A stretch of 24,993 nucleotides of DNA. Source: a virus (Duplodnaviria > Heunggongvirae > Uroviricota > Caudoviricetes). The stretch lies in the IMG/VR virus record IMGVR_UViG_2778261537_000018, positions 1-24,993 of that record; one strand, 5' to 3'. Both the position numbers and the translations under genes were made by a program. The notes below the pieces were generated by a model that saw nothing but the letters and a program-made list of their open reading frames with translations, was not told where the DNA came from and did no database searches. Of the stretch, positions 5,551 through 24,296 are shown piece by piece (position 1 is the first letter of the stretch; each line of letters starts with the position of its first letter).

Positions 5551-5643
5551 TATACTAATGCAATAGAATATCTACCTACGATAATTTATACTGGAAGTGA
5601 TGAAAAAATAAAAAAATATCAATACTTTTCGATGTGGGGATAT

Positions 5644-7386: not shown

Positions 7387-7395
7387 GTCTGTACA

Positions 7396-8409
7396 TTATA
7401 AAAAGTTGAGTGGGTTTTTATAAACTGCGTCTTCAAGATGATCTGGTGAAAAGTGTGAATATACCATGGTCATCTTGATATCAGAATGACCCAAAATATC
7501 TCTCAAAACAAGTATGTTTCCGCCGTTCATCATAAAATGACTGGCGAAAGTATGGCGTAGCACATGAGTGCATTGTCCCGCTGGTAAGTCTATATTGGCC
7601 CGCTTCACTGCTCGTTCAAAAGCTTTTCTGCATGGCGTGAACAGCTTCCCCCTGTTTTTGGGTAGTTCGTCGTATAGCTCCTGAGATATCGGTACAGTTC
7701 GGTTTTTCTTGCCTTTGGTTTTGGTATAGGTGATCCGATATTTTGATAACTGATGGCCTTGAAGGTTTTCGGCTTCACTCCACCGCGCGCCGGTAGCTAG
7801 GCATACCTTTGCGATCATCAATAGGCTAGGGCTTTGAGAATCAGCGCAGGCATCAAGCAGGCGTTTAATTTCGTCCAAGGCTAAGAATGCCAATTCACCC
7901 TCTGCGATTTTGAATGTCGGTAGCCCGGCGAGTGGGTTAGGCGCTGACCAGTGGCCCAACTTCTTCAGGGTGCCAAAAACGGATGATAAGTTACGCTGTT
8001 CAAGGTTTACCGTGCGTGGTTTTACTGGCGACATTAGCGCGCCTTCTTCGTTACGTACCTCTCCTTTCAACCGTGCTTCACGATATTTCGTAAAGTCACC
8101 GGCGGTTAATTCAGAGGCGACGGGATCGCCTAGGCCATTGCAGATAATATTCAGTTTCGCCATCAGGCGCTTGGGGTCTGCGAGCGTCTGGCCGTAAAGG
8201 GAGTGCCACTGCTCAATCAATTCTGACAAACGCCGCCGATCTTCCTTTTCACCCAGCCACGGCTTTTTGTTCACTTGATCCATGGTGAAGTTTTCGAATG
8301 CTACAGCCTCGCCCTTTGTCGCAAATTGCTTGCGCACGCGCTTGCCGTCACGCCCGTTCGGGTAACACTCGCACAACCATTTTCCGTTCGGCTGTTTTCT
8401 GATGGTCAT
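7396..8409 (-). CDS. int: P2/186-type phage tyrosine integrase
   Basis: 337 aa; N-terminal ...NGKRVRKQFATKGEAVAFE and C-terminal HVLRHTFASHFMMNGGNILVLRDILGHSDIKMTMVYSHF (catalytic His/Arg/Tyr region). Start ATG 1 nt after the cI stop on the same strand (translational coupling). Confidence 0.85.
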   Translation of the reverse strand: MTIRKQPNGKWLCECYPNGRDGKRVRKQFATKGEAVAFENFTMDQVNKKPWLGEKEDRRRLSELIEQWHSLYGQTLADPKRLMAKLNIICNGLGDPVASELTAGDFTKYREARLKGEVRNEEGALMSPVKPRTVNLEQRNLSSVFGTLKKLGHWSAPNPLAGLPTFKIAEGELAFLALDEIKRLLDACADSQSPSLLMIAKVCLATGARWSEAENLQGHQLSKYRITYTKTKGKKNRTVPISQELYDELPKNRGKLFTPCRKAFERAVKRANIDLPAGQCTHVLRHTFASHFMMNGGNILVLRDILGHSDIKMTMVYSHFSPDHLEDAVYKNPLNFL

Positions 8410-8410
8410 A

Positions 8411-9043
8411 TCAAAGGCTCTTAATGATTTTCAATGCGCGGCCAACAACCTCGATATCATCCAGGCTGCACTCAAACGAAGAATCATCTTGATGTACAAC
8501 TAATCTGTTTCCGGGAAGGCGAGTTAGCTTAACAATGCTTTTTATCCCGTCGATATCGACCAACCACATCCCATTCACTGGTAGTGTCTGGTTACGGTCA
8601 ATTAAATATGAATCGCCATTGGTATTTACGAGAAGTAGCTCGCTTGAGTCAGGGGGAAGCAGGCTGCTATCAATGATGGCCTTCCCGGCTTCAATCAACG
8701 AACCTCCGATAAGGCTAGCCTTATCGATCTCTGGCGATACAAGCTCAGAAAGTGGTTTTACTTTGCTAGAGTTCACGAAATTGATACTTTTTCTATCATC
8801 AATTTTTGTTCCTGGTTCGCCTTGTCCTGTAGTTAGCCAGAGTAATGAAACGCCTGTTTCAAGAGCGCATTGGATCACCCATTCTGCAGGGAAGCTATCC
8901 CTTAAGTATCTGTTTGCCATAGTGCTTTTAGATGCGCCTAAGTGATCGCATAGCTGCTGTCGGGACTTGAAATCATAGGCAGCCATCAACCTATGGATAG
9001 CCTCTCTACCCCCTGTATTCTCGCCAGCCTTCACCTGTATCAT
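8411..9043 (-). CDS. CI-like phage repressor (186 cI-like, HTH N-terminal domain)
   Basis: 210 aa immediately upstream of int on the same strand; HTH-like segment QQLCDHLGASKSTMANRYLRDSFPAEWVIQCALETGVSLLWLTTGQG; position and orientation match the 186 cI-int operon. Confidence 0.7.
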   Translation of the reverse strand: MIQVKAGENTGGREAIHRLMAAYDFKSRQQLCDHLGASKSTMANRYLRDSFPAEWVIQCALETGVSLLWLTTGQGEPGTKIDDRKSINFVNSSKVKPLSELVSPEIDKASLIGGSLIEAGKAIIDSSLLPPDSSELLLVNTNGDSYLIDRNQTLPVNGMWLVDIDGIKSIVKLTRLPGNRLVVHQDDSSFECSLDDIEVVGRALKIIKSL

Positions 9044-9055
9044 TTTTTAATCCTA

Positions 9056-9107
9056 TTGACGTATCAAATATTGGATCGTAGTATCTCGATTGTTCAAATA
9101 TTGGATC
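9056..9107 (+). promoter_or_regulatory. Lytic promoter (pR-like) with flanking 14-bp direct-repeat operator candidates
   Basis: TTGACG (9056-9061), 17-nt spacer, TAGTAT (9079-9084); direct repeat tcaaatattggatc at 9064-9077 and 9094-9107. Lies in the divergent intergenic region between cI and the apl-like gene. Confidence 0.4.
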
Positions 9108-9162
9108 ACATAAAACAAGATAAAACGACATAAACCAAACCTTAACTGAGAGATACTGCACT

Positions 9163-9405
9163 ATGAGCACTGATATTTCAATTCGTGTACCAAAAGAGAT
9201 GGCTACGCCTGCAGAGTTCGCTGAATGGGAAGGTATCTCCCGTGGCTCTGTTTACCAGAAAATTCACCATGGCCAGCTCGCCAAGTACATGGTCAAGAAA
9301 GAAAAAAACAAAGGTCGCGTAAGCCTTCGTTACCTGATGTACAAAACCGACCAGGTTCGTGAATCCCTCGGTCATTCCAACTTCCGCGTCATTGTTGGTA
9401 AGTAA
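9163..9405 (+). CDS. Apl/Cox-like small excisionase/regulator
   Basis: 80-aa ORF, first gene of the rightward operon facing cI, as apl is in 186; basic, possible HTH (WEGISRGSVYQKIHHGQL). Assignment is positional plus weak motif. Confidence 0.5.
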   Translation: MSTDISIRVPKEMATPAEFAEWEGISRGSVYQKIHHGQLAKYMVKKEKNKGRVSLRYLMYKTDQVRESLGHSNFRVIVGK

Positions 9406-9437
9406 GTTCAATTATGGGAACTTTCTAAGGGGGCAGC

Positions 9438-9947
9438 ATGTTTGATTACAAGATTTCCAAACATCCGAATTTTGATGAAGCCTGTAGAGCTTTTGCACTA
9501 CGTCACAACATGACGAAGCTGGCAGAACGTGCAGGAATGAATGTTCAGACACTGCGAAACAAACTCAACCCAGATCAACCGCATCAGCTCACAGCGCCAG
9601 AAATCTGGTTGCTCACCGATCTGACTGAAGATTCAACGCTGGTAGATGGCTTTTTGGCACAGATTCACTGCCTGCCATGCGTACCAATTAATGAGGTGGC
9701 AAAAGAGAAACTGCCACATTACGTCATGAGTGCAACCGCAGAGATCGGGCGTGTTGCTGCAGGTGCGGTATCTGGTGATGTAAAAACTAGTGCCGGTCGT
9801 CGTGATGCTATCAGCAGCATTAACTCTGTAACACGACTGATGGCGCTGGCGGCTGTTTCATTGCAGGCCCGTTTACAGGCTAATCCTGCGATGGTGAGTG
9901 CAGTTGATACCGTGACTGGCCTCGGTGCTTCATTCGGTTTGCTGTGA
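9438..9947 (+). CDS. Phage CII-like regulatory protein (186 CII / CP76 family)
   Basis: 169-aa ORF after the apl-like gene; length and position match 186 cII as I recall it; N-terminal HTH-like region. No database check possible. Confidence 0.55.
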   Translation: MFDYKISKHPNFDEACRAFALRHNMTKLAERAGMNVQTLRNKLNPDQPHQLTAPEIWLLTDLTEDSTLVDGFLAQIHCLPCVPINEVAKEKLPHYVMSATAEIGRVAAGAVSGDVKTSAGRRDAISSINSVTRLMALAAVSLQARLQANPAMVSAVDTVTGLGASFGLL

Positions 9948-9954
9948 GGTGCTT

Positions 9955-10251
9955 ATGCTGACGAAAGAACCATCATTTGCATCGCTGCTGGTAAAACAAA
10001 GCCCGGCAATGCACTACGGTCACGGCTGGATCATGGGTGAGGATGGTAAACGCTGGCATCCATGTCATTCACAAGATGAATTGCTGTCTGAATTGACCAC
10101 GAGGAAACGGAGAAAGTCAAAATGTATGCAGCGGAAAGTGAAGTGGTTTATCAGTTTCGTTACAGAGGGGAGAGTTATTCAGTACCTGAAGATGATTTGC
10201 TCTGTTGTTATCCGTCGTTGTCGGGCGATGGCAGTTACTTTTTCACGCTAA
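9955..10251 (+). CDS. Fil-like small phage protein (C-terminal extent uncertain)
   Basis: ATG 9955 with GAGGTG 4 nt upstream, immediately after the cII stop; N-terminus ...HYGHGWIMGEDGKRWHPC resembles enterobacterial prophage Fil proteins as I recall them. Overlaps the next ORF by about 130 nt in another frame. Confidence 0.35.
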   Translation: MLTKEPSFASLLVKQSPAMHYGHGWIMGEDGKRWHPCHSQDELLSELTTRKRRKSKCMQRKVKWFISFVTEGRVIQYLKMICSVVIRRCRAMAVTFSR

Positions 10252-10346
10252 GGGATGGGACGTTTTTACGGGGAGAGCAGGTTAAAGAGACGATACGAAA
10301 AAATGTATCTCCTCTTGAACGTTACCGTAAGAACAAAGAACGATAG
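10122..10346 (+). CDS. Hypothetical small phage protein
   Basis: 74-aa ORF with GGAG about 10 nt upstream; overlaps the 3' part of the Fil-like ORF in a different frame, so one of the two is mis-delimited or there is a frameshift. Confidence 0.3.
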   Translation: MYAAESEVVYQFRYRGESYSVPEDDLLCCYPSLSGDGSYFFTLRDGTFLRGEQVKETIRKNVSPLERYRKNKER

Positions 10347-10368
10347 TTGCGTTTTGGGGATATGAATT

Positions 10369-10710
10369 ATGGCAATTAATGGCGCTGCGGCGACTGTTCC
10401 ATTAAGCCCCGGTGAACGCCTGAATGGACTTAATCACATTGCGGAGTTAAGGGCGAAAGTATTTGGCCTGAATATTGAGTCAGAGCTTGAGCGGTTTATT
10501 AAAGATATGCGTGATCCACGGGATATCAATAACGAACAAAATAAACGAGCACTGGCTGCCATATTCTTTATGGCAAAAATTCCAGCTGAACGTCATAGCA
10601 TCAGCATTAATGAGCTGACCACTGACGAAAAGCGGGAGTTGATTAAAGCAATGAATCATTTTCGTGCAGTGGTGAGCTTATTTCCCAGACGGCTAACCAT
10701 GCCGAATTAA
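10369..10710 (+). CDS. Hypothetical phage early-region protein
   Basis: 113-aa ORF with GGGGA SD 8 nt upstream; same strand and region as P2 orf80-83 / 186 CP genes. Confidence 0.45.
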   Translation: MAINGAAATVPLSPGERLNGLNHIAELRAKVFGLNIESELERFIKDMRDPRDINNEQNKRALAAIFFMAKIPAERHSISINELTTDEKRELIKAMNHFRAVVSLFPRRLTMPN

Positions 10711-10777
10711 GCAACTAATGAAATTAATGGCGTAAACCCGCCGGGCATCCCTTTATCTAAATTCAGGAGAATTGATT

Positions 10778-11011
10778 ATGCGTAATATTGAAACCCTCAC
10801 GACTAAAACCGGACCGGATGATGCAGGGCTTAATATTTTACTGACAGAGGCTCGTCTGGAAGAACGCCGGGCAAGGGCTGAAGCAATGGCAGCTCGCCTT
10901 GATAGCCTGGCGTGTCATATCACATCCCGCCAGCTAAACCACGTCGAAGCGGCAGAACTGCTGCGTGTGACTGCTGAAGCAATCCAGAACGAAGCGCAGG
11001 AGATCCACTAA
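10778..11011 (+). CDS. Hypothetical phage early-region protein
   Basis: ATG 10778 preceded by AGGAGA (10765-10770); 77 aa; stop overlaps the start of the TraR-like gene (TAATG). Confidence 0.45.
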   Translation: MRNIETLTTKTGPDDAGLNILLTEARLEERRARAEAMAARLDSLACHITSRQLNHVEAAELLRVTAEAIQNEAQEIH

Positions 11012-11238
11012 TGGCAGATGCAATGGATCTCGTACAGCAGCGCGTTGAAGAAGAACGCCAGCGCTATATCCGTGCTGCCCGTGCCAAAACACCGGGCGTG
11101 TCTCGTGTGCTTTGTATTGAATGTGAAGCGCCAATTCCGCCAGCACGACGCCGCGCCATTCCTGGAGTGCAGCTTTGCATTACCTGTCAGGAAATCGCAG
11201 AGCTGAAAGGCAAACATTACAACGGAGGTGTTGTATGA
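11011..11238 (+). CDS. TraR/DksA-family C4 zinc-finger protein
   Basis: 75 aa with CIECEAPIPPARRRAIPGVQLCITCQ (C-x2-C...C-x2-C), typical of phage TraR-like proteins; start overlaps the upstream stop and its own stop overlaps the dam start. Confidence 0.65.
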   Translation: MADAMDLVQQRVEEERQRYIRAARAKTPGVSRVLCIECEAPIPPARRRAIPGVQLCITCQEIAELKGKHYNGGVV

Positions 11239-12092
11239 GCACCATCCTGAAATGGGCGGGAAATAAAACCGCCATTATGTCCGAACTGAAAAAACATCTT
11301 CCTGCTGGCCCGCGACTGGTTGAACCTTTCGCGGGTTCCTGTGCTGTGATGATGGAGACGGATTACCCCAGCTATCTTGTTGCGGATATTAATCCTGATT
11401 TAATCAACCTCTATAAAAAGATTGTCGCTGATTGCGAAGCGTTTATATCTCGTGCCAGAGCTTTATTTGAGGAAGCAAACAGGGATGTGGCTTATTACAA
11501 CATAAGGCAGGAGTTTAATTACTCCACTGAAATTACTGATTTCATGAAAGCGGTATATTTCCTGTATCTCAATCGTCATGGTTACCGTGGGTTATGTCGC
11601 TATAACAAGAGCGGGCATTTCAACATTCCGTACGGTAATTATAAAAATCCGTATTTCCCTGAAAAAGAAATTCGCGCATTTGCAGAGAAAGCCCAGCGGG
11701 CAACGTTTATCTGCGCAAGCTTTGATGAAACGCTGGCGATGCTGCAGGTGGGGGATGTGGTGTATTGCGATCCGCCGTATGACGGTACGTTTTCCGGCTA
11801 TCACACTGATGGTTTCACTGAAGATGACCAGTATCACCTGGCATCCGTTCTTGAACATCGGTCATCAGAAGGACATCCGGTCATTGTTTCTAACAGTGAC
11901 ACATCCCTGATCCGTTCGCTGTATCGCAATTTTACTCACCACTACATCAAGGCAAAACGCAGCATCGGTGTGGCAGCTGGTGAGAGTAAATCTGCAACAG
12001 AAATCATCGCTGTTTCCGGGCCGCGCTGCTGGGTGGGATTTGATCCTTCGCGTGGCGTGGATAGTTCAGCCGTGTACGGAGTACGTGCATGA
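11235..12092 (+). CDS. dam: DNA adenine methyltransferase (Dam-like, orphan N6-A MTase)
   Basis: Motif I-like EPFAGSCAV and catalytic motif DPPY ([12 protein letters not shown]); N-terminus [11 protein letters not shown]. Start at ATG 11235 (ORF-track start 11175 is an upstream extension). No adjacent restriction endonuclease gene. Confidence 0.8.
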
Positions 12093-14509
12093 GTCATGCC
12101 GATATGAACAACTGCTGCGGCTTTAACGAGGCTGCCGCAGCGTTCTCATGGAACAGCCCGAAAAAGGCCATTAACCCTTATCTGGACCCGGCGGAAGTTG
12201 CGCCGGTTTCTGCGCTTTCAAACCTGATCACTCTGTACGCTGCCGATAACGAGCAGGAACAACTGCGCCGCGAGGCACTGAGTGATCAGGTCTGGGAGCG
12301 TTATTTTTTTAATGAATCACGTGATCCTGTCCAGCGCGAAATGGAGCAGGATAAGCTCATTAGCCGGGCAAAGCTGGCGCATGAGCAGCAGCGTTTTAAT
12401 CCGGATATGGTCATTCTGGCGGACGTCAACGCCCAGCCTTCCCATATCAGCAAGCCGCTGATGCAACGTATTGAATACTTTAGCAGCCTGGGCAGGCCAA
12501 AGGCTTATTCCCGCTATTTACGTGAGACGATTAAGCCATGTCTGGAACGACTGGAGCATGTACGCGACAGCCAGCTATCTGCATCTTTTCGTTTTATGGC
12601 AAGCCATGAAGGGCTGGACGGCCTGCTTATCCTGCCTGAAATGAGTCAGGATCAGGTGAAGCGCCTGTCTACCCTTGTCGCTGCGCATATGAGCATGTGC
12701 CTTGATGCCGCTTGTGGTGATTTGTATGCCACCGATGACGTTAAGCCAGAAGAAATCCGCAAAACATGGGAAAAGGTGGCAGCGGAAACCCTGCGTCTGG
12801 ATGTTATTCCGCCTGCGTTTGAGCAACTCCGTCGGAAAAGAAACCGCCGTAAACCCGTGCCCTATGAACTCATTCCGGGTTCGCTGGCGCGTATGTTGTG
12901 TGCCGACTGGTGGTATCGGAAATTATGGAAGATGCGTTGCGAATGGCGGGAAGAGCAGTTGCGTGCTGTCTGCCTGGTCAGCAAAAAAGCATCTCCCTAT
13001 GTCAGCTATGAAGCCGTGATGCATAAACGTGAGCAGCGCCGCAAGTCACTGGAGTTTTTCCGTTCTCATGAACTGGTGAACGAAGAGGGCGACACGCTGG
13101 ATATGGAAGACGTGGTAAACGCCAGCAGCAGCAACCCGGCGCACCGCCGCAATGAGATGATGGCCTGTGTTAAAGGTCTGGAGCTTATCGCGGAAATGCG
13201 TGGTGATTGCGCCGTTTTCTACACCATTACCTGTCCGTCACGTTTCCATTCCACGCTCAATAACGGCAGACCAAACCCAACCTGGACAAATGCGACGGTA
13301 AGACAAAGCAGCGATTATCTGGTCGGCATGTTTGCTGCATTTCGTAAGGCGATGCACAAAGCCGGGTTGCGCTGGTATGGCGTGCGGGTGGCTGAGCCGC
13401 ATCATGACGGTACGGTTCACTGGCACCTGTTGTGTTTCATGCGCAAAAAAGACCGCCGTGCCATTACTGCATTGTTGCGTAAGTTTGCCATCCGTGAAGA
13501 CCGCGAGGAACTGGGTAATAACACTGGTCCACGCTTTAAATCTGAGCTGATAAACCCGCGCAAAGGAACACCGACAAGCTACATCGCGAAATACATTAGT
13601 AAGAACATTGACGGGCGTGGTCTGGCTGGCGAGATCAGCAAGGAAACGGGTAAATCCCTGCGTGATAACGCTGAATACGTTAATGCCTGGGCGTCTCTGC
13701 ATCGTGTTCAGCAATTCCGCTTCTTTGGTATTCCGGGGCGTCAGGCTTACCGTGAACTGCGATTGCTGGCTGGTCAGGCGGCAAGGCAACAGGGCGACAA
13801 AAAAGCAGGTGCGCCGGTACTGGATAACCCGCGCCTTGATGCCATCCTGGCTGCTGCTGATGCTGGTTGTTTTGCCACTTACATCATGAAGCAGGGTGGC
13901 GTACTGGTTCCCCGCAAATATCACCTCATCAGAACTGCTTATGAAATTAACGAAGAGCCGACCGCCTATGGCGATCACGGCATTCGTATTTATGGCATCT
14001 GGTCACCCATTGCAGAGGGCAAGATCTGCACTCATGCAGTGAAGTGGAAAATGGTCCGTAAAGCCGTTGACGTTCAGGAGGCGGTAGCCGACCAGGGCGC
14101 TTGCGCCCCTTGGACTCGGACTCGTGGCAATAACTGTCCCCTTGCTGAAAATTTGAACCAACAAGGGAAAGACAAATCAGCTGATGGGGATACCAGAACG
14201 GATATCACCCGCATGGATGACAAGGAGTTGCACGATTACCTGCACAGTATGAGCAAAAAAGAACGCCGGGAACTGGCAGCAAGGTTACACCTGGTTAAAC
14301 CGAAACGGTGTAAAGACTACAAACAGCGAATTACAGACCATCAGCGACAGCAGCTCGTGTATGAGCTGAAGTCCAGAGGGTTTGATGGTAGCGAGAAAGA
14401 GGTCGATTTACTCCTTCGCGGCGGCAGTATTCCGTCAGGAGCAGGCCTGCGTATCTTCTATCGGAACCAGCGTTTGCAGGAAGATGATAAGTGGCGAAAC
14501 CTGTATTAA
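12089..14509 (+). CDS. Phage replication initiation endonuclease (P2 gpA / 186 RepA family, rolling-circle type)
   Basis: 806 aa; start overlaps the dam stop (ATGA); contains the conserved [11 protein letters not shown] region I associate with P2 A-type replication proteins; position matches P2/186 synteny. Confidence 0.8.
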
Positions 14510-14601
14510 TTACGATGGTTAACCATTCGTGCTCTTAATAATACCAGGCATATCAGGCTGATAAACGTAAAAAAACGTTTTACATCAGTAAGATTATTAT
14601 A

Positions 14602-14621
14602 TACTGTAAATATAAACAGTG
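14602..14621 (+). promoter_or_regulatory. LexA (SOS) box upstream of the small ORF / DinI-like operon
   Basis: TACTGTAAATATAAACAGTG fits CTGT-N8-ACAG; lies about 40 bp upstream of a strong SD (AGGAGG 14653-14658) and ATG 14663. Confidence 0.5.
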
Positions 14622-14662
14622 GTTGTACATACAGTATTGCGTGTGGTGTCATAGGAGGAAAG

Positions 14663-14851
14663 ATGCAGGACTATTTTTTGGAGTCTTTGAAGCTCCAGCG
14701 CATTGATTTTTTTCTTAAGCTTGTAGCGGCCAGTGAGTGTAGTGATGAAGAGAAGGGACTGGCTCTGCAGTGGGTTTCTGAATTGACTGATGAACTCATG
14801 GCAAAAATCAGAAGCCACGAATACAACCGCTCAATGGATGTCATCAGCTGA
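14663..14851 (+). CDS. Small SOS-controlled phage protein (possible N-terminal part of a Tum-like antirepressor)
   Basis: 62-aa ORF with strong SD AGGAGG 5 nt upstream and LexA box in its promoter region; followed 10 nt later by the DinI-like ORF in another frame. Confidence 0.45.
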   Translation: MQDYFLESLKLQRIDFFLKLVAASECSDEEKGLALQWVSELTDELMAKIRSHEYNRSMDVIS

Positions 14852-14861
14852 GGTGACTTTT

Positions 14862-15095
14862 ATGCGCATTGAAATAATGATCGATAAAGAGCAGAAGATT
14901 AGCCAGTCTACCCTGGACGCCCTTGAATCCGAGCTTTACCGTAATCTGCGCCCCCTGTATCCCAAAACGGTAATTCGTATCCGCAAAGGTAGCTCTAACG
15001 GTGTGGAACTGACCGGACTGCAACTGGACGAAGAAAGGAAGCAAGTGATGAAAATTATGCAGAAGGTGTGGGAAGACGACAGCTGGCTGCATTAA
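14862..15095 (+). CDS. DinI-family protein (phage Tum/DinI-like)
   Basis: 77 aa starting MRIEIMIDKEQKISQSTLDALESELYRNLRPLYP...KVWEDDSWL, closely resembling E. coli DinI (MRIEVTIAK...AGAIDAL...E.WE..D.W); SD GAGGTG upstream. Confidence 0.7.
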   Translation: MRIEIMIDKEQKISQSTLDALESELYRNLRPLYPKTVIRIRKGSSNGVELTGLQLDEERKQVMKIMQKVWEDDSWLH

Positions 15096-15363
15096 GAAAC
15101 GTTGCTGGCGTCTGAACTTGTTTCTGGCGTCAGCAAGGTTGAACAACGAGCCCTTGCGAGGCGTTAGCTCTGTAGTGCATGTCTATGCCGCATGAGATCG
15201 CATGATCGTTTGAGGATCGTTTTTGCTAAGGCCCGCCAGAACTGGTGGGCTTTTGCGTAGATCATGCAGGTGCATGAAAACCACTACATAAAGCGGGCAG
15301 GCGTGGCGGGGATACGAGCGCGCGCTAACTCATAAATCCTAGATTATTAGTGGATTTATCTCA

Positions 15364-17187
15364 TTGAAATGTGCACTATTCCCAGCATTGAGTTGTACCA
15401 GATGTCTTTATGGAGGGACTGTGGCTTTTGTAACTGATATTCGGCTTGAAGATAATGCTATTGCTGCACCTGCGACAGCACAGGTTATGGCTCAGAGGCT
15501 AGGATCTGTATTACGTAAGAGATATGAAGAATTCATCCATAAAAGAGAGTGTGCACCAGGCCAAGCAGACTATGATGTAAAAATGGCTAGCAGGGCTTTA
15601 GCCGCATTCACTATGTATCAGTTAGGATGTGTGGATGATAAGTATGCAGGGGAGTCTGTATGTGATAGTAGTGAAGATGGTGGTATAGATGGAATAGCAA
15701 TCAACCATAACGAAAAAATCGTTGTTGTTGTTCAATCAAAATTTCACCAATCGGGAAACGGCACTTGGACAAGAGCCGATTTTATGTGTTTTAAGGATGC
15801 TTGTGAGAAGCTACAAAGTGAAAGATACGAATTATTTGATTCCATATTGCAAAATAAAAGCGGGGAAATAAGTGCGGCTTTAAGTAGTTTTGAATACAAG
15901 TTCATCTTTGCGATGGCGCATACAGGTAAAAAAGGTGCTGCAGAGGAAATATTAAATGATATGCGGGAATGGCAATATCAATTAAACGCTGCAGCTTTTA
16001 CACCTGAGGATGAGCCTAAAGAGAACTGGGGATTTCAGGTTCATTTAATATCCTCTGAAGATATGATGCATTGGTTACAGAATGGCTCTCGAAATCAAAT
16101 TGATCTTAACAGGGTTGAAATTGAGCGTTTTGGATTTTTGAATGAACCATATCAAGCTTTTTACGGGGCTATTAGTGGTGATCAAGTTGCAGAATGGTGG
16201 GAAGAGCATGGTGCTCGATTATTTACAAAAAACATAAGGAATATGCTTGGTAAAACAGAAGTGAATGAGGAAATAAAAAAGACAGCTATAGATAATCCTG
16301 ATATGTTTTGGTTTTATAATAATGGGATTACTGTACTGGTTAAGGAAGTTGTTCCTCATAGACGAAACGCAGCTCCTAATATAGAGAGAGGGATTTTTGA
16401 TTTTCGTGATGTAAGTGTCATTAATGGTGCACAAACAGTCAGTAGTATTGGCGCATGTAAAGATGCGCTTGGTGAAAACATATATAGACTCAAAGTGCCA
16501 GCTAGATTCATTGTTATAGATGATGATACTGATAATTTAACTGCAAATGCAATTACAAAAGCTAACAATTTCCAAAATAGAGTATTGGGAAGAGATTTTG
16601 CATCGCAGCAGGCAGATCAACATAGATTGGCAAGGGAGTTAGTGCTTGAAGGATATCAATATCAGTTACTAAGAACAGATGAAGATCATTCACAGACAAA
16701 TACGAAAGTCATTGACTTGGATGAGGCGCTCAATGCACTCGCATGTTTAAGTAAAAATAATACGGTTGTATCGACACTAAAATCAAATCGCGGTAGGTTT
16801 TTTGAAAATTTTGAAGGCTCTCTATATAAAACTATTTTCAATCCAAGATTAAGTGGTTTAAAACTTATCAATACTGTTCTACATTTTAGAGTTATAGATA
16901 AGTTGATCGGTAAAACATTACTATCAGTAGATAAAACGACCCATAGTCGCAAGCATTTAATTATTACGCATGGTAATAGATACTATGCGTCTGTACTATT
17001 GAGCAACGTTTCTGGGATACATAATAGCTCAGAAATTCTTGTTCCAGATGAAAAAAATCTTTCCGAAGAATTAAGTGCATTAATTCAACGTGCTGAAGAG
17101 TACATTGAAGATAATTACCCGAATGCCTATCCGGCAAGATTTTTTGCAAATCCAACGAAAATACAAGAGTTATACGATAATGTTTAA
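15364..17187 (+). CDS. AIPR-like putative abortive-infection protein with N-terminal PD-(D/E)xK-like motif
   Basis: Long AT-rich ORF between repA and the portal gene (the P2 old/tin cargo position). N-terminal DGGIDGIAI...VVVVQSKF resembles a PD-(D/E)xK (Mrr-like) core; FWFYNNGITVLV and VINGAQT resemble AIPR-family motifs as I recall them. True start uncertain (in-frame TTG 15364, GTG 15421, ATG 15487). Confidence 0.5.
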   Translation: MKCALFPALSCTRCLYGGTVAFVTDIRLEDNAIAAPATAQVMAQRLGSVLRKRYEEFIHKRECAPGQADYDVKMASRALAAFTMYQLGCVDDKYAGESVCDSSEDGGIDGIAINHNEKIVVVVQSKFHQSGNGTWTRADFMCFKDACEKLQSERYELFDSILQNKSGEISAALSSFEYKFIFAMAHTGKKGAAEEILNDMREWQYQLNAAAFTPEDEPKENWGFQVHLISSEDMMHWLQNGSRNQIDLNRVEIERFGFLNEPYQAFYGAISGDQVAEWWEEHGARLFTKNIRNMLGKTEVNEEIKKTAIDNPDMFWFYNNGITVLVKEVVPHRRNAAPNIERGIFDFRDVSVINGAQTVSSIGACKDALGENIYRLKVPARFIVIDDDTDNLTANAITKANNFQNRVLGRDFASQQADQHRLARELVLEGYQYQLLRTDEDHSQTNTKVIDLDEALNALACLSKNNTVVSTLKSNRGRFFENFEGSLYKTIFNPRLSGLKLINTVLHFRVIDKLIGKTLLSVDKTTHSRKHLIITHGNRYYASVLLSNVSGIHNSSEILVPDEKNLSEELSALIQRAEEYIEDNYPNAYPARFFANPTKIQELYDNV

Positions 17188-17190
17188 ACT

Positions 17191-17217
17191 AAAGGGAGGT
17201 TGCCTCCCTTTTTTTTA
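17191..17217. terminator. Rho-independent terminator between the AIPR-like gene and the portal gene (bidirectional candidate)
   Basis: aaAGGGAGGttgCCTCCCTttttttttt: 7-bp GC-rich stem (17193-17199 / 17203-17209), 3-nt loop, T-run 17209-17216; lies between convergent stops at 17187 and 17219. Confidence 0.6.
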
Positions 17218-17218
17218 A

Positions 17219-18244
17219 TTAGAAATGGTATTCTTGGAATTCAATAACACCTTCTTTTATGAAATTGTTTATTTCTTGTAATCTTTTTTGCAATGGCAAT
17301 AATTCATTACGTACAAATACTTTACTCGCCTTCTCTACATCTCCAAAGCCCCCGACATTATTAGGCATTATCCCCATCATTTGTGGCGGCACACGATGCG
17401 CCGCCATCATGTCGTCCCGGCTCACGTTCTTGATATTCAGGAACTCATCCTTCGCCGCCACTTCTGACAACGGGATAATCTGAAGCCCGTCCTTTTTACC
17501 GTTAGGCGAGTACATAAACAGGTTACGGAAGTTACCAGGACCTTTGGCGCTTTTCATCGCATTGCGGAGGTTGTTCACATCCTCCTGGTTCTGCGCTGCA
17601 TCGGTCATGTACATGATGAAGCCTGCATGACTGCCGTTAATGTAATACTTGCGGCGGAACAGCGTGGCGGACTCGTTGAGCAAAGCGGATGGGATGGCAG
17701 AAAGATAGCCGGGCAGGCCGTAGATCTCCTGATTAATATCCGGTTCCATCAGATGAAAAATGCTGCCTTTCGTGAACTGATACGGCTGGGTTGTCATACC
17801 GTATTGCACAAACCAGTAGGTATCCAGGTCTAACCCGCGTCGGGTGTATTTTGCCAGAGCAGGCTCAAGGGCGATAACTTCACCGAAGCGGTTCGTGCGT
17901 TTCTCCAGGTAGGCGTTACCAAATACCAGATAGTCCTGCACAAAACGTGAAAAATCCTGCTGGCTGAGCAGCGGGTGAGGGATGTAGGTACTGGTCAGAA
18001 TGTTGCATTTCACTGCAATCGGTGAACTGTGATGCACGGCGGCGCGGAAGGTGCGCGCCAGCCCGTCAAAGCTTACTGGCGGCTCATACCAGCGATCTGT
18101 CTGTACGCATTCCACATAGTCCAGCAGTTCGCGGCGGTCCAGAACAGGAACGGGATCACCGAAGCTGAATGCTTCGGCTGAAGTCTGGCTTTTATGCTGG
18201 ATCTGGTTCGTCGACGCAGCGCGGTTCTTCTTACTCTTTCCCAT
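17219..18244 (-). CDS. Phage portal protein (P2 gpQ family)
   Basis: About 341 aa, same size as P2 Q; directly downstream of and overlapping the terminase large subunit gene by 1 nt on the same strand; position matches the P2 Q-P arrangement. Confidence 0.8.
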   Translation of the reverse strand: MGKSKKNRAASTNQIQHKSQTSAEAFSFGDPVPVLDRRELLDYVECVQTDRWYEPPVSFDGLARTFRAAVHHSSPIAVKCNILTSTYIPHPLLSQQDFSRFVQDYLVFGNAYLEKRTNRFGEVIALEPALAKYTRRGLDLDTYWFVQYGMTTQPYQFTKGSIFHLMEPDINQEIYGLPGYLSAIPSALLNESATLFRRKYYINGSHAGFIMYMTDAAQNQEDVNNLRNAMKSAKGPGNFRNLFMYSPNGKKDGLQIIPLSEVAAKDEFLNIKNVSRDDMMAAHRVPPQMMGIMPNNVGGFGDVEKASKVFVRNELLPLQKRLQEINNFIKEGVIEFQEYHF

Positions 18245-20010
18245 CAAAAAATCTCCACAATATTGCTGGTATTGGCGGACTCGCCCTGCAGCGGTTCGTT
18301 AAACAGTGCGTGCATTGTTGCCCAGGCCAGATCCGCATGGCTGGCTTCTTCGCTGCGGCTGGCTTCATAGGTCGGGCGGTTGCCGCTGGCGGTGGTGGCG
18401 CGACGGATTGCCATAAATGACTGCGCTATGTCGGTGTGTCCGGCGTCAAACTCCAGACGGCGGTGACTGATAATGTCGTAGGCCTTGAGTACCAGGGCGT
18501 TTTTAACATTGGGGTTGTAGACAAACTCCCGGACGGCAGGAAAAAACGCTTTCACGTTCTCGTAAACCCCGTGACCGACGCCGGTTGAGTCGATACCGAT
18601 ATATGTCACGTTGTACTGTTCAGTCAGTTTTTTGATGGCGTCAGCCTGGGCGCGGAAGTCCATCCCGCGCCACTGGTGACGCTCAAGAATGCGGAACTTA
18701 CCACCCGGCACGGCTGGCGGAGCCACTACCACGCATCCGGCACTGTCGCCGTTCTGCGTACCTTTTGCCGGGTCATAACCGATCCACACTTCGCGCCAGC
18801 CAAACGGGCGCAGGGCCAGTGCATGAAAGTCGGTCCAGACTTCCCAGCTGTCCACCATGCACGCCTGCAGTTCGCTGAGCGGGAACACGGACGCGAGATC
18901 GTCCACGAACTCGCACATCAGCAGGTTCTGGTATTCGTCCGGGCTGTACTCCATGCGCAGCTGGTCGAGGTCGAACAGGTTACAGCCGCCGCGCACCGCA
19001 TCTTCCACGGTGACTATCTGGCGGTATTGCCCGTCTGCGCACAGCAGGCCGGGGGCCAGATTGCTGTGGGACAGGTCGATGTCCACCTTGTCAGCTTTGT
19101 TGCGTCCACGGTTGAACAGCGCACCGGACCAGAACGGATAAGCACTGTGGGTCAGGCTGGATGGCGTGGAAAAATAGGTTTGTCGCCATTTCTTGTGAAT
19201 AGCCATCCCGGAAGCCACTTTGCGCAGCTCCTGGAATTTCGGTATCCAGAAATATTCATCCAGATACAGGTTGCCGTGATAACTCTGGGCCGTGCGGGCA
19301 TTGGTGCCGAGGAAGTAAAGCGTGGCTCCGTTAGGAAGCACCATCGGATCGCCTTTTAGCTCCACCTCGACTTCTTTGGCGAAGTCGATGATGTATTGTT
19401 TAAAGACGTGGGCCTGAGCCTTACTGGCAGAAAGGAAAATCTGGTTACGTCCGGTAAGCAGGGCGTCAATCAGGGCTTCACGGGCAAAATAGAAGGTCGC
19501 GCCGATCTGGCGAGACTTCAGCAGGTTGCGGATACGGTTGGTTTTTCCGGCTTCCCACCAGTGGCGCTGGTAGTTGAACATGGAGGAATGGAAGATTTCT
19601 TCCAGCTTCTCAATCTGCTCATCGGTGAAAACATTCTTTTCCGGCTGACGGCGTGGGCCTTTATTGCGGTTGGCGACGTTAGGGTTTAAGTCGGCTTCGT
19701 TGCCGCCATTGTTAAACTTGCCGATCCGCGCGTGGCGCTCAGACTGGCGCGCCAGCAGGTCAATCTCTTTGAAATCTTTCCCTTCTTTGTGCTCCTTCAT
19801 GATGAGCTGGCAGTAGCGTGCGGCGGTGGTGAGCTGCATCTGATCCAGCGGCCCATAGTCACCCCACTTGTCGCGTTTTTTCCAGCTGTGAACGGTTGCA
19901 ACTTTCTCGCCCAGCATTTCAGCAATGCGGGCTACGCGGTATCCCTGAAAGTACAGCAGCATGGCCTGCCGACGGGGATCGAGATCTGCGGGTGTCAGTG
20001 TGGTGTTCAT
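18244..20010 (-). CDS. Terminase large (ATPase) subunit (P2 gpP family)
   Basis: 588 aa, the size of P2 P; divergent from the scaffold gene as in P2 (Q-P leftward, O-N-M-L rightward). Confidence 0.8.
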   Translation of the reverse strand: MNTTLTPADLDPRRQAMLLYFQGYRVARIAEMLGEKVATVHSWKKRDKWGDYGPLDQMQLTTAARYCQLIMKEHKEGKDFKEIDLLARQSERHARIGKFNNGGNEADLNPNVANRNKGPRRQPEKNVFTDEQIEKLEEIFHSSMFNYQRHWWEAGKTNRIRNLLKSRQIGATFYFAREALIDALLTGRNQIFLSASKAQAHVFKQYIIDFAKEVEVELKGDPMVLPNGATLYFLGTNARTAQSYHGNLYLDEYFWIPKFQELRKVASGMAIHKKWRQTYFSTPSSLTHSAYPFWSGALFNRGRNKADKVDIDLSHSNLAPGLLCADGQYRQIVTVEDAVRGGCNLFDLDQLRMEYSPDEYQNLLMCEFVDDLASVFPLSELQACMVDSWEVWTDFHALALRPFGWREVWIGYDPAKGTQNGDSAGCVVVAPPAVPGGKFRILERHQWRGMDFRAQADAIKKLTEQYNVTYIGIDSTGVGHGVYENVKAFFPAVREFVYNPNVKNALVLKAYDIISHRRLEFDAGHTDIAQSFMAIRRATTASGNRPTYEASRSEEASHADLAWATMHALFNEPLQGESANTSNIVEIF

Positions 20011-20152
20011 GGCACAAACCTACAGCCTTGAATGAAGGCTTTCCCCGCCTGCGGTTTGTGTGGTTGTCGGTACAAATACCGCGCATTGTTTCACTGCCCC
20101 CATCACCGCAACCATAAGGCTCCAGTAAGTTTTTTCTAACGGAGCACGGCTC

Positions 20153-20986
20153 ATGACAGTGAAAGCAAAGCGTTTTCGCATCGGGGTGGAAGGTGCCACC
20201 ACCGACGGACGCGAAATCCAGCGTGAATGGCTGGAACAGATGGCAGCCAGCTACAACCCGGCGGTGTATACCGCGCTGATTAACCTTGAGCACATCAAGT
20301 CTTATCTGCCGGACAGCACCTTTAACCGCTACGGCAAGGTGACGGCGCTGTTTGCTGAAGAAATCACGGAAGGTCCGCTGGCAGGCAAGATGGCGCTGTA
20401 TGCCGACGTTGAGCCAACGGAGTCCCTGGTGGAGCTGGTGAAAAAAGGCCAGAAATTATTCACCTCTATGGAAGTCAGCCCGAAGTTTGCTGATACGGGC
20501 AAAGCCTACCTGGTCGGCCTGGCTGCCACTGATGATCCAGCCAGTCTGGGTACGGAAATGCTGACATTCAGCGCCAGTGCAGCCCATAACCCGCTGGCAA
20601 GCCGCAAGCAGAATCCTGCCAATCTCTTTACCGCTGCAGAGGAAACGGTGATCGAACTGGAAGAAATCCAGGATGACAAACCGTCCCTGTTTGCCCGTGT
20701 CACGGCGCTGTTCACCAAAAAAGAGCAGTCCGATGATGCCCGGTTCTCTGATGTGCATAAGGCCGTGGAGCTGGTCGCCACTGAGCAGCAGAACCTGAGC
20801 GCACGCACCGAAAAATCCCTGTCTGAGCAGGAAGAACGCCTGTCTGAACTGGAGACTGCTCTGCAGGAGCAGCAAACCGCTTTTAACGAACTGGTGAATA
20901 AGCTGAGTCATGAAGACAGCCGCCAGGACTACCGCCAGCGTGCAACAGGCGGTAACGCCCCCGCTGACACTCTGACCAATTGCTGA
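20153..20986 (+). CDS. Capsid scaffolding protein (P2 gpO family)
   Basis: 277 aa; N-terminus ...RFRIGVEGATTDGREIQREWLEQMAASYNP...INLEH resembles P2 gpO (FRIGVEG.T.DGR...INLEH); GGAG 8 nt upstream of ATG. Confidence 0.8.
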   Translation: MTVKAKRFRIGVEGATTDGREIQREWLEQMAASYNPAVYTALINLEHIKSYLPDSTFNRYGKVTALFAEEITEGPLAGKMALYADVEPTESLVELVKKGQKLFTSMEVSPKFADTGKAYLVGLAATDDPASLGTEMLTFSASAAHNPLASRKQNPANLFTAAEETVIELEEIQDDKPSLFARVTALFTKKEQSDDARFSDVHKAVELVATEQQNLSARTEKSLSEQEERLSELETALQEQQTAFNELVNKLSHEDSRQDYRQRATGGNAPADTLTNC

Positions 20987-21002
20987 TGGAGCACAAAACC
21001 TG

Positions 21003-22061
21003 ATGAAGAAGAATACCCGCTTTGCTTTTAACGCTTACCTGCAGCAGCTGGCGCGTCTGAACGGTGTGGCAGTTGAAGAACTGTCCAGCAAGTTCACCGT
21101 GGAGCCGTCTGTACAGCAGACGCTGGAAGACCAGATCCAGCAGTCCGCCGCTTTCCTGACGCTGATTAACGTCACGCCAGTGACTGAGCAGTCCGGTCAG
21201 CTGCTGGGGTTGGGTGTTGGCAGCACCATTGCCGGAACCACTGATACCACCGCGAAAGAGCGTGAACCTGTCGATCCGACGCTGATGGTCGATGTGGAAT
21301 ACAAATGCGAGCAGACCAACTTTGACACGGTGCTGACCTACGCGAAGCTGGACCTGTGGGCGAAATTTCAGGATTTCCAGGTGCGTATCCGTGACGCCAT
21401 CGTGAAACGTCAGGCACTGGACCGCATCATGATCGGCTTTAACGGCGTGAAGCGTGCGAAAACCTCCAACCGTAGTGAAAACCCGCTGCTACAGGATGTG
21501 AACAAAGGCTGGCTGCAGAAAATCCGTGAGGATGCACCGGATCACGTCATGGGCAGCACCACCACGGGCGGCGAAACCACACCGGGTGCGGTGAAAGTCG
21601 GGAAAGGTGGCGAATATGCCAACCTGGACGCTGTGGTGATGGATGCGGTCAATGAGCTTATCGACGTGGTCTACCAGGACGATGACGATATGGTGGTGAT
21701 TTGCGGTCGTGAACTGCTGTCTGACAAGTATTTCCCGCTGGTCAACAAAGAGCAGGAAAACAGTGAAAAACTGGCAGCCGATATGATTATCAGTCAGAAA
21801 CGCATGGGCGGTCTGCAGGCCGTGCGTGCGCCGTTCTTCCCGCCGAATGCGCTGCTGATCACCCGTCTGGATAACTTGTCCATCTACTGGCAGGAAGACA
21901 CCCGCCGCCGTTCAGTTATCGACAACCCGAAACGTGACCGGATTGAAAACTTTGAATCCGTTAATGAAGCCTATGTGGTTGAGGACTACCGCTGCGCCGC
22001 ACTGGTGGAAAACATCCAGATTGGTGATTTCAGCACCGCCGCAGCCGAAACCGGAGCGTAA
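21003..22061 (+). CDS. Major capsid protein (P2 gpN family)
   Basis: 352 aa; ...TRFAFNAYLQQLARLNGV...KFTVEPSVQQTL...GFNGVKRA...VGKGGEYANLDA...IISQKR...IGDFS closely matches P2 gpN as I recall it. Confidence 0.85.
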   Translation: MKKNTRFAFNAYLQQLARLNGVAVEELSSKFTVEPSVQQTLEDQIQQSAAFLTLINVTPVTEQSGQLLGLGVGSTIAGTTDTTAKEREPVDPTLMVDVEYKCEQTNFDTVLTYAKLDLWAKFQDFQVRIRDAIVKRQALDRIMIGFNGVKRAKTSNRSENPLLQDVNKGWLQKIREDAPDHVMGSTTTGGETTPGAVKVGKGGEYANLDAVVMDAVNELIDVVYQDDDDMVVICGRELLSDKYFPLVNKEQENSEKLAADMIISQKRMGGLQAVRAPFFPPNALLITRLDNLSIYWQEDTRRRSVIDNPKRDRIENFESVNEAYVVEDYRCAALVENIQIGDFSTAAAETGA

Positions 22062-22064
22062 TCC

Positions 22065-22715
22065 ATGAGCCTGAGTCCCGCACGGCAGCATCGCCTGCGC
22101 GTTCAGGCTGAACAGGCCGCCCGCGAGGGCGGCAGTGTTCGCCACGCATCGGGCTATGACCTGATGCTGCTGCAACTGGCGGAAGACCGCCGCCGTCTCA
22201 AGGGCGTTCAGTCCACGGTCAAAAAAGCGGAAATCAAGGTGGAGCTGCTGCCGAAGTACGCCGCCTGGGCAGAGGGGGTCCTGGCTGCCGGAGGCGCTCA
22301 ACAGGATGACGTGCTGATGTACGTGATGCTGTGGCGCATTGATGCCGGAGATTATGCCGGGGCGCTGGAGATCGGGCGTCATGCCCTGCGTCATGGCTGG
22401 GTGATGCCGCTGGGTAACCGCAACGTGCAGACCGTGCTGGCAGAGGAAATGGCAGACGCCGCGCAGAGCGCAATGCTTGCCGCCACCGGCTTTGATGCCG
22501 ATCTGTTGTTGCAGACGCTGGAGCTGACAGACGGTCTGGATATGCCGGACCAGTCACGGGCGCGTCTGCATAAAGCGATTGGCGCTGTCCTGAGTGAAAG
22601 CAATCCGGCTTCCGCCCTTAATCATCTCAACCATGCGTTACAGCTCGATCCCCGCTGTGGCGTGAAAAAAGACAAACAGCAGCTGGAGCGCAGACTGCGC
22701 AATGACAGCCGCTGA
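22065..22715 (+). CDS. Terminase small/endonuclease subunit (P2 gpM family)
   Basis: 216-aa ORF immediately after the capsid gene; assignment by synteny (O-N-M-L) and size, with weak sequence recollection. Confidence 0.65.
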   Translation: MSLSPARQHRLRVQAEQAAREGGSVRHASGYDLMLLQLAEDRRRLKGVQSTVKKAEIKVELLPKYAAWAEGVLAAGGAQQDDVLMYVMLWRIDAGDYAGALEIGRHALRHGWVMPLGNRNVQTVLAEEMADAAQSAMLAATGFDADLLLQTLELTDGLDMPDQSRARLHKAIGAVLSESNPASALNHLNHALQLDPRCGVKKDKQQLERRLRNDSR

Positions 22716-22810
22716 CAGAACGTGCCCCCGCGCACGGGCGGCACGGGGTGGCGAAAGGCACTGCCACATCAAAACCCCGTCCACCGCCCTCTATTTCAGG
22801 AGAAAGCAGC

Positions 22811-23014
22811 ATGAAGTTTGTTGCGCCAGAACAGGCACCGGAACAGGCGGAAATCATCAGAAATACGCCGTTCTGGCCTGATGTGGACCTGTCGGAGTTT
22901 CGCAGTGTCATGCGCACTGACGGCACGGTGACGCAGCCGCGTTTAAAGCAGGTTGACGGTTTTACAACCAGTATTGAACTCGAAGTGAAGATTGATGATC
23001 TTGAAATGGAGTAA
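22811..23014 (+). pseudogene. Truncated head completion/stabilisation gene (P2 gpL N-terminal fragment)
   Basis: ATG 22811 with AGGAGA SD; MKFVAPEQ...FWPDVDLSEFRSVMRTDGTVTQPRL matches the gpL N-terminus; ORF ends after 67 aa whereas gpL is about 169 aa; the next gene is ogr, so the intervening morphogenetic genes are deleted. Confidence 0.5.
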
Positions 23015-23082
23015 AGTGTTCTCAATATTGATATTTTGTGTATCATTACAATGATTCTGATAGCAAAGGTAGGGATCTGGAT

Positions 23083-23301
23083 ATGATGAATTGTCCAAAG
23101 TGTGGTCATGCGGCACACACAAGGAGCAGTTTTCAAGTAACTGAAAGCACCAAAGAGCGTTACTGCCAGTGCCAAAATATTAACTGCGGGAGTACTTTTG
23201 TTACCCATGAAACAGTGGTCCGGTTTATTGTGACACCCGCACTGATTGCTACTGCTCCTCCACATCCATTGCCAGGTGGTCAGGGGCATATGAATTTTTG
23301 A
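23083..23301 (+). CDS. Ogr/Delta/B-family zinc-finger late-gene transcriptional activator
   Basis: 72 aa from ATG 23083: MMNCPKCGHAAHTRSS...TKERYCQCQNINCGSTFVTHETVVRFIV...PHPLPGGQ, near-colinear with P2 Ogr (CPLCQHAAHARTS...KERYHQCQNVNCSATF...PHPLPSGQ). Confidence 0.8.
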   Translation: MMNCPKCGHAAHTRSSFQVTESTKERYCQCQNINCGSTFVTHETVVRFIVTPALIATAPPHPLPGGQGHMNF

Positions 23302-23327
23302 GAAAGAGAACCTGCTACGGCAGGTTT

Positions 23328-23810
23328 TTATTCATCTGGGATCTCACCCGTTTCAAGAAAATGTATAAAGCCAGGCTCATCTATGATGATTGTGCCTTTC
23401 ATCCTGGCTGCCGATACTTTTGATGGGCCTGCATTGTAACCGCAACAGAGCATCTGAAGGCTTTGGGTTACAGAGGTTCTTACCGTTAATCCTTGTTCAT
23501 TCGCCTTATCAACCAATCTTTCTTTATCTGCTTTCTTAAATCCGGTGAAACACACATCGAATGTATTTTTTTTCGGACCAGACTGCTTGGTGAGATGTGA
23601 GTAGTTTTCGGGGAGGAATGACGCGCACTCCTGAATGGCTTGTTCTGGTGAATCGTACTGTTTAAGAATGCGGTCTTTTCGGAAGGTTTTTATTCGATCG
23701 GTGTTCTTACAAATGCCCTGTATATGATTTTCGCTATAACTGATGCTCTGTATAGAGTGAACACCGATACGACCATTTGCATTGATGTAAACAAAGTGAA
23801 GTTCTTCCAT
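23328..23810 (-). CDS. Small WYL-like / BRCT-domain protein, function unknown
   Basis: 160-aa AT-rich ORF between ogr and ssrA. C-terminal 75 aa fit a BRCT fold pattern (CFTGF...RLV...GLTVRTSVTQSLQMLCCGYNAGPSKVSAARMKGTIIIDEPGF, compare LigA BRCT VLTGSL...[41 protein letters not shown]). N-terminal part has an R-x-F-R-x-D-R-I-like motif (KTFRKDRI) reminiscent of WYL domains. Confidence 0.4.
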   Translation of the reverse strand: MEELHFVYINANGRIGVHSIQSISYSENHIQGICKNTDRIKTFRKDRILKQYDSPEQAIQECASFLPENYSHLTKQSGPKKNTFDVCFTGFKKADKERLVDKANEQGLTVRTSVTQSLQMLCCGYNAGPSKVSAARMKGTIIIDEPGFIHFLETGEIPDE

Positions 23811-23864
23811 GTGAAACCTCTTTGCATGATTTCAAGATGGCGACAGGCAAGATAGACGCAAAAG

Positions 23865-23887
23865 TCTGTCGCCATTTTGCCGCCACT
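23865..23887. repeat. 23-bp direct repeat, right copy, forming the 3' arm of a 10-bp inverted repeat
   Basis: tctgtcgccattttgccgccact identical to 5528-5550; atggcgacag (23837-23846) is the exact reverse complement of ctgtcgccat (23866-23875), giving a hairpin with a 19-nt loop. Confidence 0.8.
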
Positions 23888-23933
23888 ACTAAAGAAAAAG
23901 GGGCTACGCTTTCACGTAACCCCTTGATTTATT

Positions 23934-24296
23934 TGGTGGAGCTGGCGGGAGTTGAACCCGCGTCCGAAATTCCTACATCCTCGGTACTACATGCTTAGTC
24001 AGTCTTTACATTCGCTTGCCAGCTGCGGACGGACACGCCACTAACAAACTAGCCTGATTAAGTTTTAACGCTTCAACCCCAGGCAGGGCTTCCACGCGAT
24101 CTCTTTTGGGTTTGACCTCTCTTGATCCCCGTCCTAAGAGCGGAGGCTAGGGAGAGAGGGCTCTAAGCAGGTTATTAAGCTGCTAAAGCGTAGTTTTCGT
24201 CGTTTGCGACTATTTTTTGCGGCTTTTTACGAGGCCAACCGCCCCTCGGCATGCACCTTGGGTTTCGCAAATCCCGTCGAATCCAGAATCAGCCCC
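23934..24296 (-). ncRNA. ssrA: tmRNA (SsrA), intact 363-nt gene
   Basis: Reverse complement reads GGGGCTGATTCTGGATTCGACGGGATTTGCG...TAAAAACTTAATCAGGCTAGTTTGTTAGTGG...GGGTTCAACTCCCGCCAGCTCCACCA, matching E. coli tmRNA as I recall it; lies immediately downstream of smpB on the same strand. Confidence 0.95.

Follow-up and report, generated by a model that had tools for sequence, protein, structure and literature searches.

An exact 23-bp direct repeat lies just inside both ends of an island integrated in the ssrA gene, and the question raised by this locus is what the repeat represents: binding sites for the integrase of the element, the core of a second integration event, or a regulatory motif shared by the two flanking genes. 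The window analyzed here, i.e., the whole stretch of 24,993 nt from the IMG/VR record IMGVR_UViG_2778261537_000018, contains a P2-like (Peduoviridae) prophage as the segment between its two ssrA repeats. The 23-mer TCTGTCGCCATTTTGCCGCCACT, described in an earlier note as occurring in the same orientation at 5528–5550 and 23865–23887, was re-found as exactly two copies at these positions, both on the plus strand and with 0 mismatches. A search of the window allowing up to 3 mismatches revealed no further copy, and the 23-mer was matched in 0 of 100 dinucleotide-preserving shuffles; the repeat is real and non-random.

Each copy is built of two tandem 8-mers that begin one helical turn (11 bp) apart, in the order TGTCGCCA-ttt-TGCCGCCA. 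Counted on both strands of the window, the motif TGYCGCCA occurs 10 times, compared to 2.9 ± 1.6 times in 300 simulations under a third-order Markov model. Of these copies, five are no more than 150 bp away from the two att cores, and the two 23-mers are the only places at which the tandem form TGYCGCCA-N3-TGYCGCCA is present. The inverted repeat reported for the ssrA-proximal copy (arms of 10 bp, loop of 19 nt) is likewise there, read from the sequence as atggcgacag (23837–23846) and ctgtcgccat (23866–23875), and the partner at 23837–23846 carries TGTCGCCA on the minus strand (23838–23845), which makes a third 8-mer copy. The earlier note had seen the repeat and the inverted repeat correctly, but had missed both the tandem 8-mers within the 23-mer and the third 8-mer copy.

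The intact ssrA gene (tmRNA, tag ANDENYALAA) was located by ARAGORN at 23934–24296 on the minus strand. Its 3' end is duplicated (5391–5438 and 23934–23981, with 45 identical bases), so defining an attR core at 23934–23978, which is the 3' end of intact ssrA, and an attL core at 5391–5435, which is the displaced copy and also forms the junction with a CP4-57-type island on the left. The 23-mers lie 92 and 46 bp inside these 45-bp repeats, as the earlier note had measured, with intervening spans of 5436–5527 and 23888–23933, respectively. The copy at 23865–23887, on the ogr side of the phage and in attR of the prophage, is the predicted P arm of attP, with tandem sites TGTCGCCA at 23867–23874 and TGCCGCCA at 23878–23885 in an 11-bp period; the copy at 5528–5550, on the int side and in attL, is the predicted P' arm, with the same two sites at 5530–5537 and 5541–5548. 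Positions 5541–5551 of the P' arm read tgccgccactt, which is identical to the published 186-type consensus, and YCGCCA is contained in all four direct sites and in the inverted site.

An exact match to the IHF consensus WATCAANNNNTTR (AATCAAGGGGTTA), assigned by consensus match only, is located between the P arm and the core (23917–23929, minus strand); it is one of four matches in the whole window, none of which was found on the P' side. The 92-bp spacer between core and P' arm (5436–5527) is A+T-rich, its length is fixed in relatives, and its mean column conservation amounts to 78%, with conserved islands. By analogy, sites for Apl/Cox and IHF would be expected in this spacer. The ATAAAAC-like repeats of the cI–apl switch region (see below) were sought in it, and no convincing match was obtained.

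An intrinsic terminator hairpin, predicted from 12 pairs followed by a T run, also lies between the P arm and the core (23898–23925, minus strand), and is kept in all ssrA-type P arms. In the lysogen, this phage-borne terminator lands directly downstream of ssrA and replaces the native one, which is displaced by 18.5 kb and persists at 5327–5341 on the minus strand; the phage-borne terminator is conserved in ssrA-integrating phages of four genera. The minus-strand RNA from 23933 to 23811 folds well (z = −5.8). Reading the inverted repeat as an RNA hairpin was considered and rejected, since the 12-bp terminator apparently accounts for most of the fold signal, and conservation of the inverted-repeat hairpin is lacking among relatives.

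In related phages, the tandem pair keeps a fixed position. Relative to the core marker, its sites start at −81/−70 and +125/+136 in the window as well as in phage Cartapus, Salmonella SEN8, Yersinia MLG42, and Klebsiella ST437-OXA245phi4.1. The ogr-side arm of Escherichia 500465-1, from which only the ogr-side stretch was covered, is at −81/−70, and so is the P-arm pair of a further locus (L087). From IMG/VR, 80 loci with an integrase at least 89% identical were collected, 58 of which contained the core. YGYCGCCA-N3-YGYCGCCA was present at exactly +125 from the core marker in 57 of these 58 loci, in 41 distinct variants of the 23-mer. Column conservation, calculated from 54 distinct sequences, was 96.5% for the 8-mers, 33–80% for the 3-nt internal spacer, and 46% beyond the arm. 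Scanning IMG/VR with the P-arm 17-mer retrieved 71 P arms with 43 distinct upstream contexts, the pair being placed at −81. In the contiguous attP of Cartapus, the ogr-side arm is the identical 23-mer at a distance of 46 bp from the ssrA core, and the int-side arm reads TGCCGCCA-aaa-TGTCGCCA and is 91 bp away from it; the cargo of Cartapus is a RES protein, unlike the deaminase of the window.

The third site is less regular. Among the 71 P arms, it is inverted in 30, direct in 9, and absent in 32. All 30 P arms with an inverted third site have the E. coli version of a 160-aa gene located next to the arm, while the 9 direct third sites occur 17–18 bp upstream, where the ogr terminator directly precedes the arm. 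Judged from this distribution, the third site is recurrent yet dispensable, and its role in the prophage studied here is uncertain.

The same tandem pair also adjoins other cores in IMG/VR contigs, namely 186-type tRNA-Ile(CAT), tRNA-Leu(TAA), and ssrA of other species, or it abuts the 3' end of int. From these sequence contexts, the motif tracks the arm-binding type of the integrase and not its core specificity. Eleven individual loci were noted in which the arm pair (…CGCCATTTTGCCGCCAC…) precedes differing att cores, comprising tRNA-Ile(CAT), tRNA-Leu(TAA), another tRNA, and ssrA of other species; in 10 of the 11, a terminator-like hairpin follows the arm pair. A constant arm module combined with varied cores illustrates modular exchange of core specificity.

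The integrase encoded at 7396–8409 on the minus strand is an intact tyrosine recombinase of the 186/HP1/P2 type with 337 aa. Its catalytic part matches the HP1 integrase (1AIH, E = 2.5e-66), and it is 55% identical to 186 Int. Its N-terminal arm-binding domain carries W11, E14, and Y16, as is typical of the 186 type, whereas P2 Int has Y, D, and R there; this difference (W/E/Y versus Y/D/R) has been proposed to discriminate 186-type from P2-type arm recognition (PMC3448106). No solved structure was found over residues 1–47 of the window Int, which comprise the N-terminal arm-binding domain. The CI repressor is encoded at 8411–9043 (minus strand), and an 80-aa protein encoded at 9163–9405 (plus strand) was assigned, from its position and the annotation of homologues in Cartapus, SEN8, and MLG42, as an Apl/Cox-like excisionase and repressor, i.e., the recombination directionality factor. 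The cI–apl switch region at 9060–9140 contains TCAAATATTGGATC twice, at about 9064 and about 9095, likely representing CI operators, and three ATAAAAC-like repeats with a period of about 11 bp, which are likely Apl/Cox sites.

Nilsson et al. (2011, PMC3448106) gave the arm consensus as tgccGCCActt for the 186 type and tgTGGaCa for the P2 type, and reported Fels-2 and SopEPhi to integrate in ssrA. The record of phage 186 (NC_001317) annotates "predicted Int arm-type recognition sequences" with the consensus YAYCGCCAYTY, three sites to the left of attP and two to the right. As read from the 186 sequence, the B/ogr side holds two direct sites spaced by 11 bp together with one in inverted orientation, and the int side holds a further direct pair. 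The window shares this predicted layout, including the inverted third site that underlies the inverted repeat, as well as the repeat core YCGCCA, the W, E, Y type of the Int N-terminus, and a terminator between P arm and core, annotated in 186 as "terminator of lysogenic operon". It differs in its core (3' end of ssrA, as opposed to tRNA-Ile in 186), in the first two bases of the site (TG versus YA), in the distance from the P arm to the identity segment (46 bp versus about 75 bp), in the spacing between the inverted third site and the first direct site (19 nt versus 7–9 nt), and in having cargo genes outside both arms.

Similarity is also seen to the group of Fels-2, SopEPhi, and SEN8 (Felsduovirus, Elveevirus, Wadgaonvirus), which share the ssrA core and both arm offsets, and whose block of P arm, terminator, and core has essentially the same sequence as that of the window. 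In most of these phages, however, P' differs from P in the order of TGTC and TGCC, in the spacer, and in the flanks, whereas the window arms are identical over 23 bp; the window prophage also differs from the group in that its lysis and tail genes are deleted.

In the P2 record (NC_001895), protein_bind features for Int mark the P and P' arms, and the P' arm contains TGTGGACA twice in an 11-bp period at the equivalent position. P2 thus resembles the window in its tandem 8-bp direct repeats, as read for the P' arm, and in the placement of the P arm by ogr and the P' arm by int; P2 also has IHF and Cox sites between arms and core, as would be expected for the window, and IHF footprints between P arm and core are recorded for both 186 and P2. 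However, the sequence recognized in P2, TGTGGACA, is a different one, matching the differing N-terminal residues Y, D, and R of its integrase, the core is short and lies outside any RNA gene, and the P' arm overlaps the 3' end of int. The arms of P2 attP were reportedly footprinted by Yu and Haggard-Ljungquist in 1993. The arm sites of phage lambda (P1, P2, P'1–3) are alike in principle, a heterobivalent tyrosine integrase bridging arm and core together with IHF and excisionase, but their sequence, number, and orientation are unrelated to those in the window, and the N-terminal domain of lambda Int has no detectable sequence relationship. When the literature was searched for direct evidence that 186 Int binds arm sites, nothing beyond consensus statements was obtained.

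From these sequence comparisons, we consider it highly probable that the 23-mers are the P and P' arm-type Int sites in the attP of a 186-type, P2-like (Peduoviridae) phage integrated in the 3' end of ssrA. The arm-type option, one of those raised in the earlier note, is supported by the agreement with the consensus, by the constant geometry among relatives, and by the type of the integrase. The feature itself is the already known arm-type architecture of 186-type P2-like integrases. In the circular phage, the arms would flank the 45-bp core, the P arm 46 bp off on the ogr side and the P' arm 92 bp off on the int side. Integration would split attP at the core, so that the P' arm enters attL (5528–5550) and the P arm attR (23865–23887); one arm would come to lie in each att site, which would explain why the direct repeat is found just inside both island ends. 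As presumed from P2, 186, and lambda, Int would contact the arm sites with its small N-terminal domain and the core with its core-binding and catalytic domains, while IHF, together with Apl/Cox in excision, would bend the DNA and allow Int to bridge arm and core in the intasome. By analogy with the prediction for 186, the inverted third 8-mer (23838–23845) would probably serve as an accessory arm site.

This assignment fixes the true limits and the anatomy of attL and attR in an ssrA-integrated 186-type prophage and matters mainly for annotation: the repeat is not a second element boundary, and no new biology is implied.

The genes outside the arms differ between relatives. In the window, an anti-phage dCTP deaminase gene (5644–7386, plus strand; PADLOC dCTPase model, E = 6e-140; RefSeq name "anti-phage dCTP deaminase") has been inserted precisely into the gap that separates the P' arm from the stop codon of int. 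In the 57 related loci, this gap is 2 bp in 15 and comprises 0.65–2.2 kb of varied cargo in 42; since the gap varies while the offset of the pair is fixed, cargo is inserted outside the arm, and the arm–core distance stays constant. The pair is also present in SEN8, MLG42, and the 15 IMG/VR loci without int-side cargo. The int–att region of P2-like phages has already been listed as a minor defence hotspot (PMC13586616), to which the insertion point outside the arm site is a new detail. On the other side, a 160-aa gene (23328–23810, minus strand) lies between the P arm and ogr (23083–23301), which makes the ogr side of attP a second slot for cargo. The product of this gene is weakly BRCT-like, with weak matches to PADLOC PDC-S48 (E = 1.8e-7) and to the BRCT-like C-terminal parts of LigA and a DEDDh exonuclease; in phage records, the gene is labelled "DNA ligase" or "exonuclease". 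The prophage carries defence cargo on both sides of attP. For this phage group, a practical rule results, namely that cargo, often defence genes, goes just outside the arms while the arm–core distance is constant, and this helps to delimit attP and the int–att defence hotspot in other genomes.

The position of both 23-mers next to cargo genes raises the possibility that the arm sites serve a double duty. The P-arm pair and the inverted 8-mer would then form a hairpin-capable operator 27–75 bp upstream of the BRCT-like gene, the P' arm would overlap a weak −35-like hexamer upstream of the deaminase gene, Int occupancy, which differs between the integrated, excising, and free states, would gate the defence cargo, and the 23-bp identity would have arisen by conversion during cargo acquisition. 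We regard this extended scheme as unlikely.

A regulatory role as the primary function, with the 23-mer acting as a shared promoter or operator that co-regulates the dCTP deaminase and the 160-aa gene, is very improbable. A cargo gene indeed follows downstream of each copy, the left copy is overlapped by a weak sigma-70-like match at 5540–5569 (TTGCCG-18-TAGAAT, 9 of 12 positions), and the inverted third site precedes the start codon of the 160-aa gene by 27–36 bp. However, the motif is oriented oppositely relative to the two genes, promoter-like matches were not above those in shuffled sequences, and the pair is kept at identical offsets in phages with other cargo (RES protein, 516-aa protein) or none, which argues against the shared regulatory motif considered in the earlier note. 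As a secondary effect, Int occupancy may modulate cargo expression.

There is even less reason to attribute the 8-mers to another phage protein (CI, Apl/Cox, or Ogr/B) instead of Int, and we give this very little credence. Such binding would have a precedent in 186, where, according to the record annotation, attP also contains binding sites for Apl and IHF and is flanked distally by sites for CI, but the likely CI and Apl repeats of the switch region are unlike TGYCGCCA, and the motif both agrees with the published arm consensus for Int of the 186 group and follows the Int type across differing cores.

The least tenable proposal, likewise from the earlier note, takes the 23-mers as the att core of a second, nested integration, the real element being 5551–23864 within an older island scar. 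The repeat is direct, exact, and near both ends, as this would demand. Two constructs were searched in 5,426 complete E. coli genomes, a scar composed of attL flank, 23-mer, and attR flank, and an empty site joined at the 45-bp core: the scar occurred in 0 of the 5,426, whereas the core-joined empty site was 100% identical in many genomes including K-12 DH5alpha and covered to at least 80% in 965. Given furthermore that the phage records Cartapus, SEN8, and MLG42 have a contiguous attP with the pair on either side of one ssrA core, that the element contains a single integrase, and that the arms of relatives usually differ outside the 8-mers (the 41 variants mentioned above) and so offer no identity segment for strand exchange, a nested integration can be practically dismissed. 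The absence of the scar, the frequent core-joined empty site, and the independence of the pair from cargo thus led us to reject both the nested-integration and the cargo-regulator reading.

Under the arm-site assignment, the exact identity of the two 23-mers calls for a comment of its own. Among the relatives compared, constraint is confined to the 16 bases that make up the 8-mers; the full identity of 23 of 23 bases is, on this sequence evidence, a detail of the lineage that exceeds functional need. In ssrA-type phages, the P arm is nearly invariant and the P' arm variable. The window belongs to a small sub-lineage with a P' arm resembling the P arm, in which one locus (L127) is identical and two others (L068 and L111) are one base off; the attL–deaminase context is common to four complete E. 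coli genomes. The identity may be due to conversion between the arms, or to simple descent and shared ancestry with the sub-lineage.

The remaining prophage genes comprise the replication gene A (12089–14509), portal and terminase genes (17219–20010, minus strand), and the genes for scaffold, capsid, and small terminase (20153–22715). An AIPR/AbiU-like cargo gene (15364–17187, plus strand; Pfam AIPR, E = 7e-35; PADLOC AbiU, E = 7e-25) is located between gene A and the portal gene, at the site of the classical old/tin defence hotspot of P2. The prophage is derived by a deletion, with its junction at 22955–22958, that removed lysis and tail genes over about 15.9 kb. Positions 21900–22955 match 12095–13150 of phage 500465-1 (capsid, small terminase, and the start of the head-completion gene L), and from about 22956 the window matches the last approximately 56 bp of gene D, followed by ogr. 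The deletion junction was found in none of the 5,426 complete E. coli genomes. A 220-aa ORF at 22627–23289 (minus strand) spans this junction and lacks family matches, and is therefore probably spurious.

Directly to the left of the displaced ssrA fragment, a CP4-57-type (P4-like) integrase is encoded at 3996–5267 on the minus strand. Taken together with the 100% match of the empty-site construct in K-12 DH5alpha, this indicates two elements in tandem at ssrA, and 5391–5435 is the junction for both stacked elements. E. coli TW10598 (NZ_CP035846.1, 3866500–3909000) has in common with the window the left approximately 13 kb of the latter, including the dCTP deaminase, int, and cI genes and reaching into gene A. 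Beyond this part, differing phage genes follow, and after about 27 kb the chromosomal genes rplS to smpB–ssrA appear in inverted order, which suggests a chromosomal inversion between two P2-like prophages.
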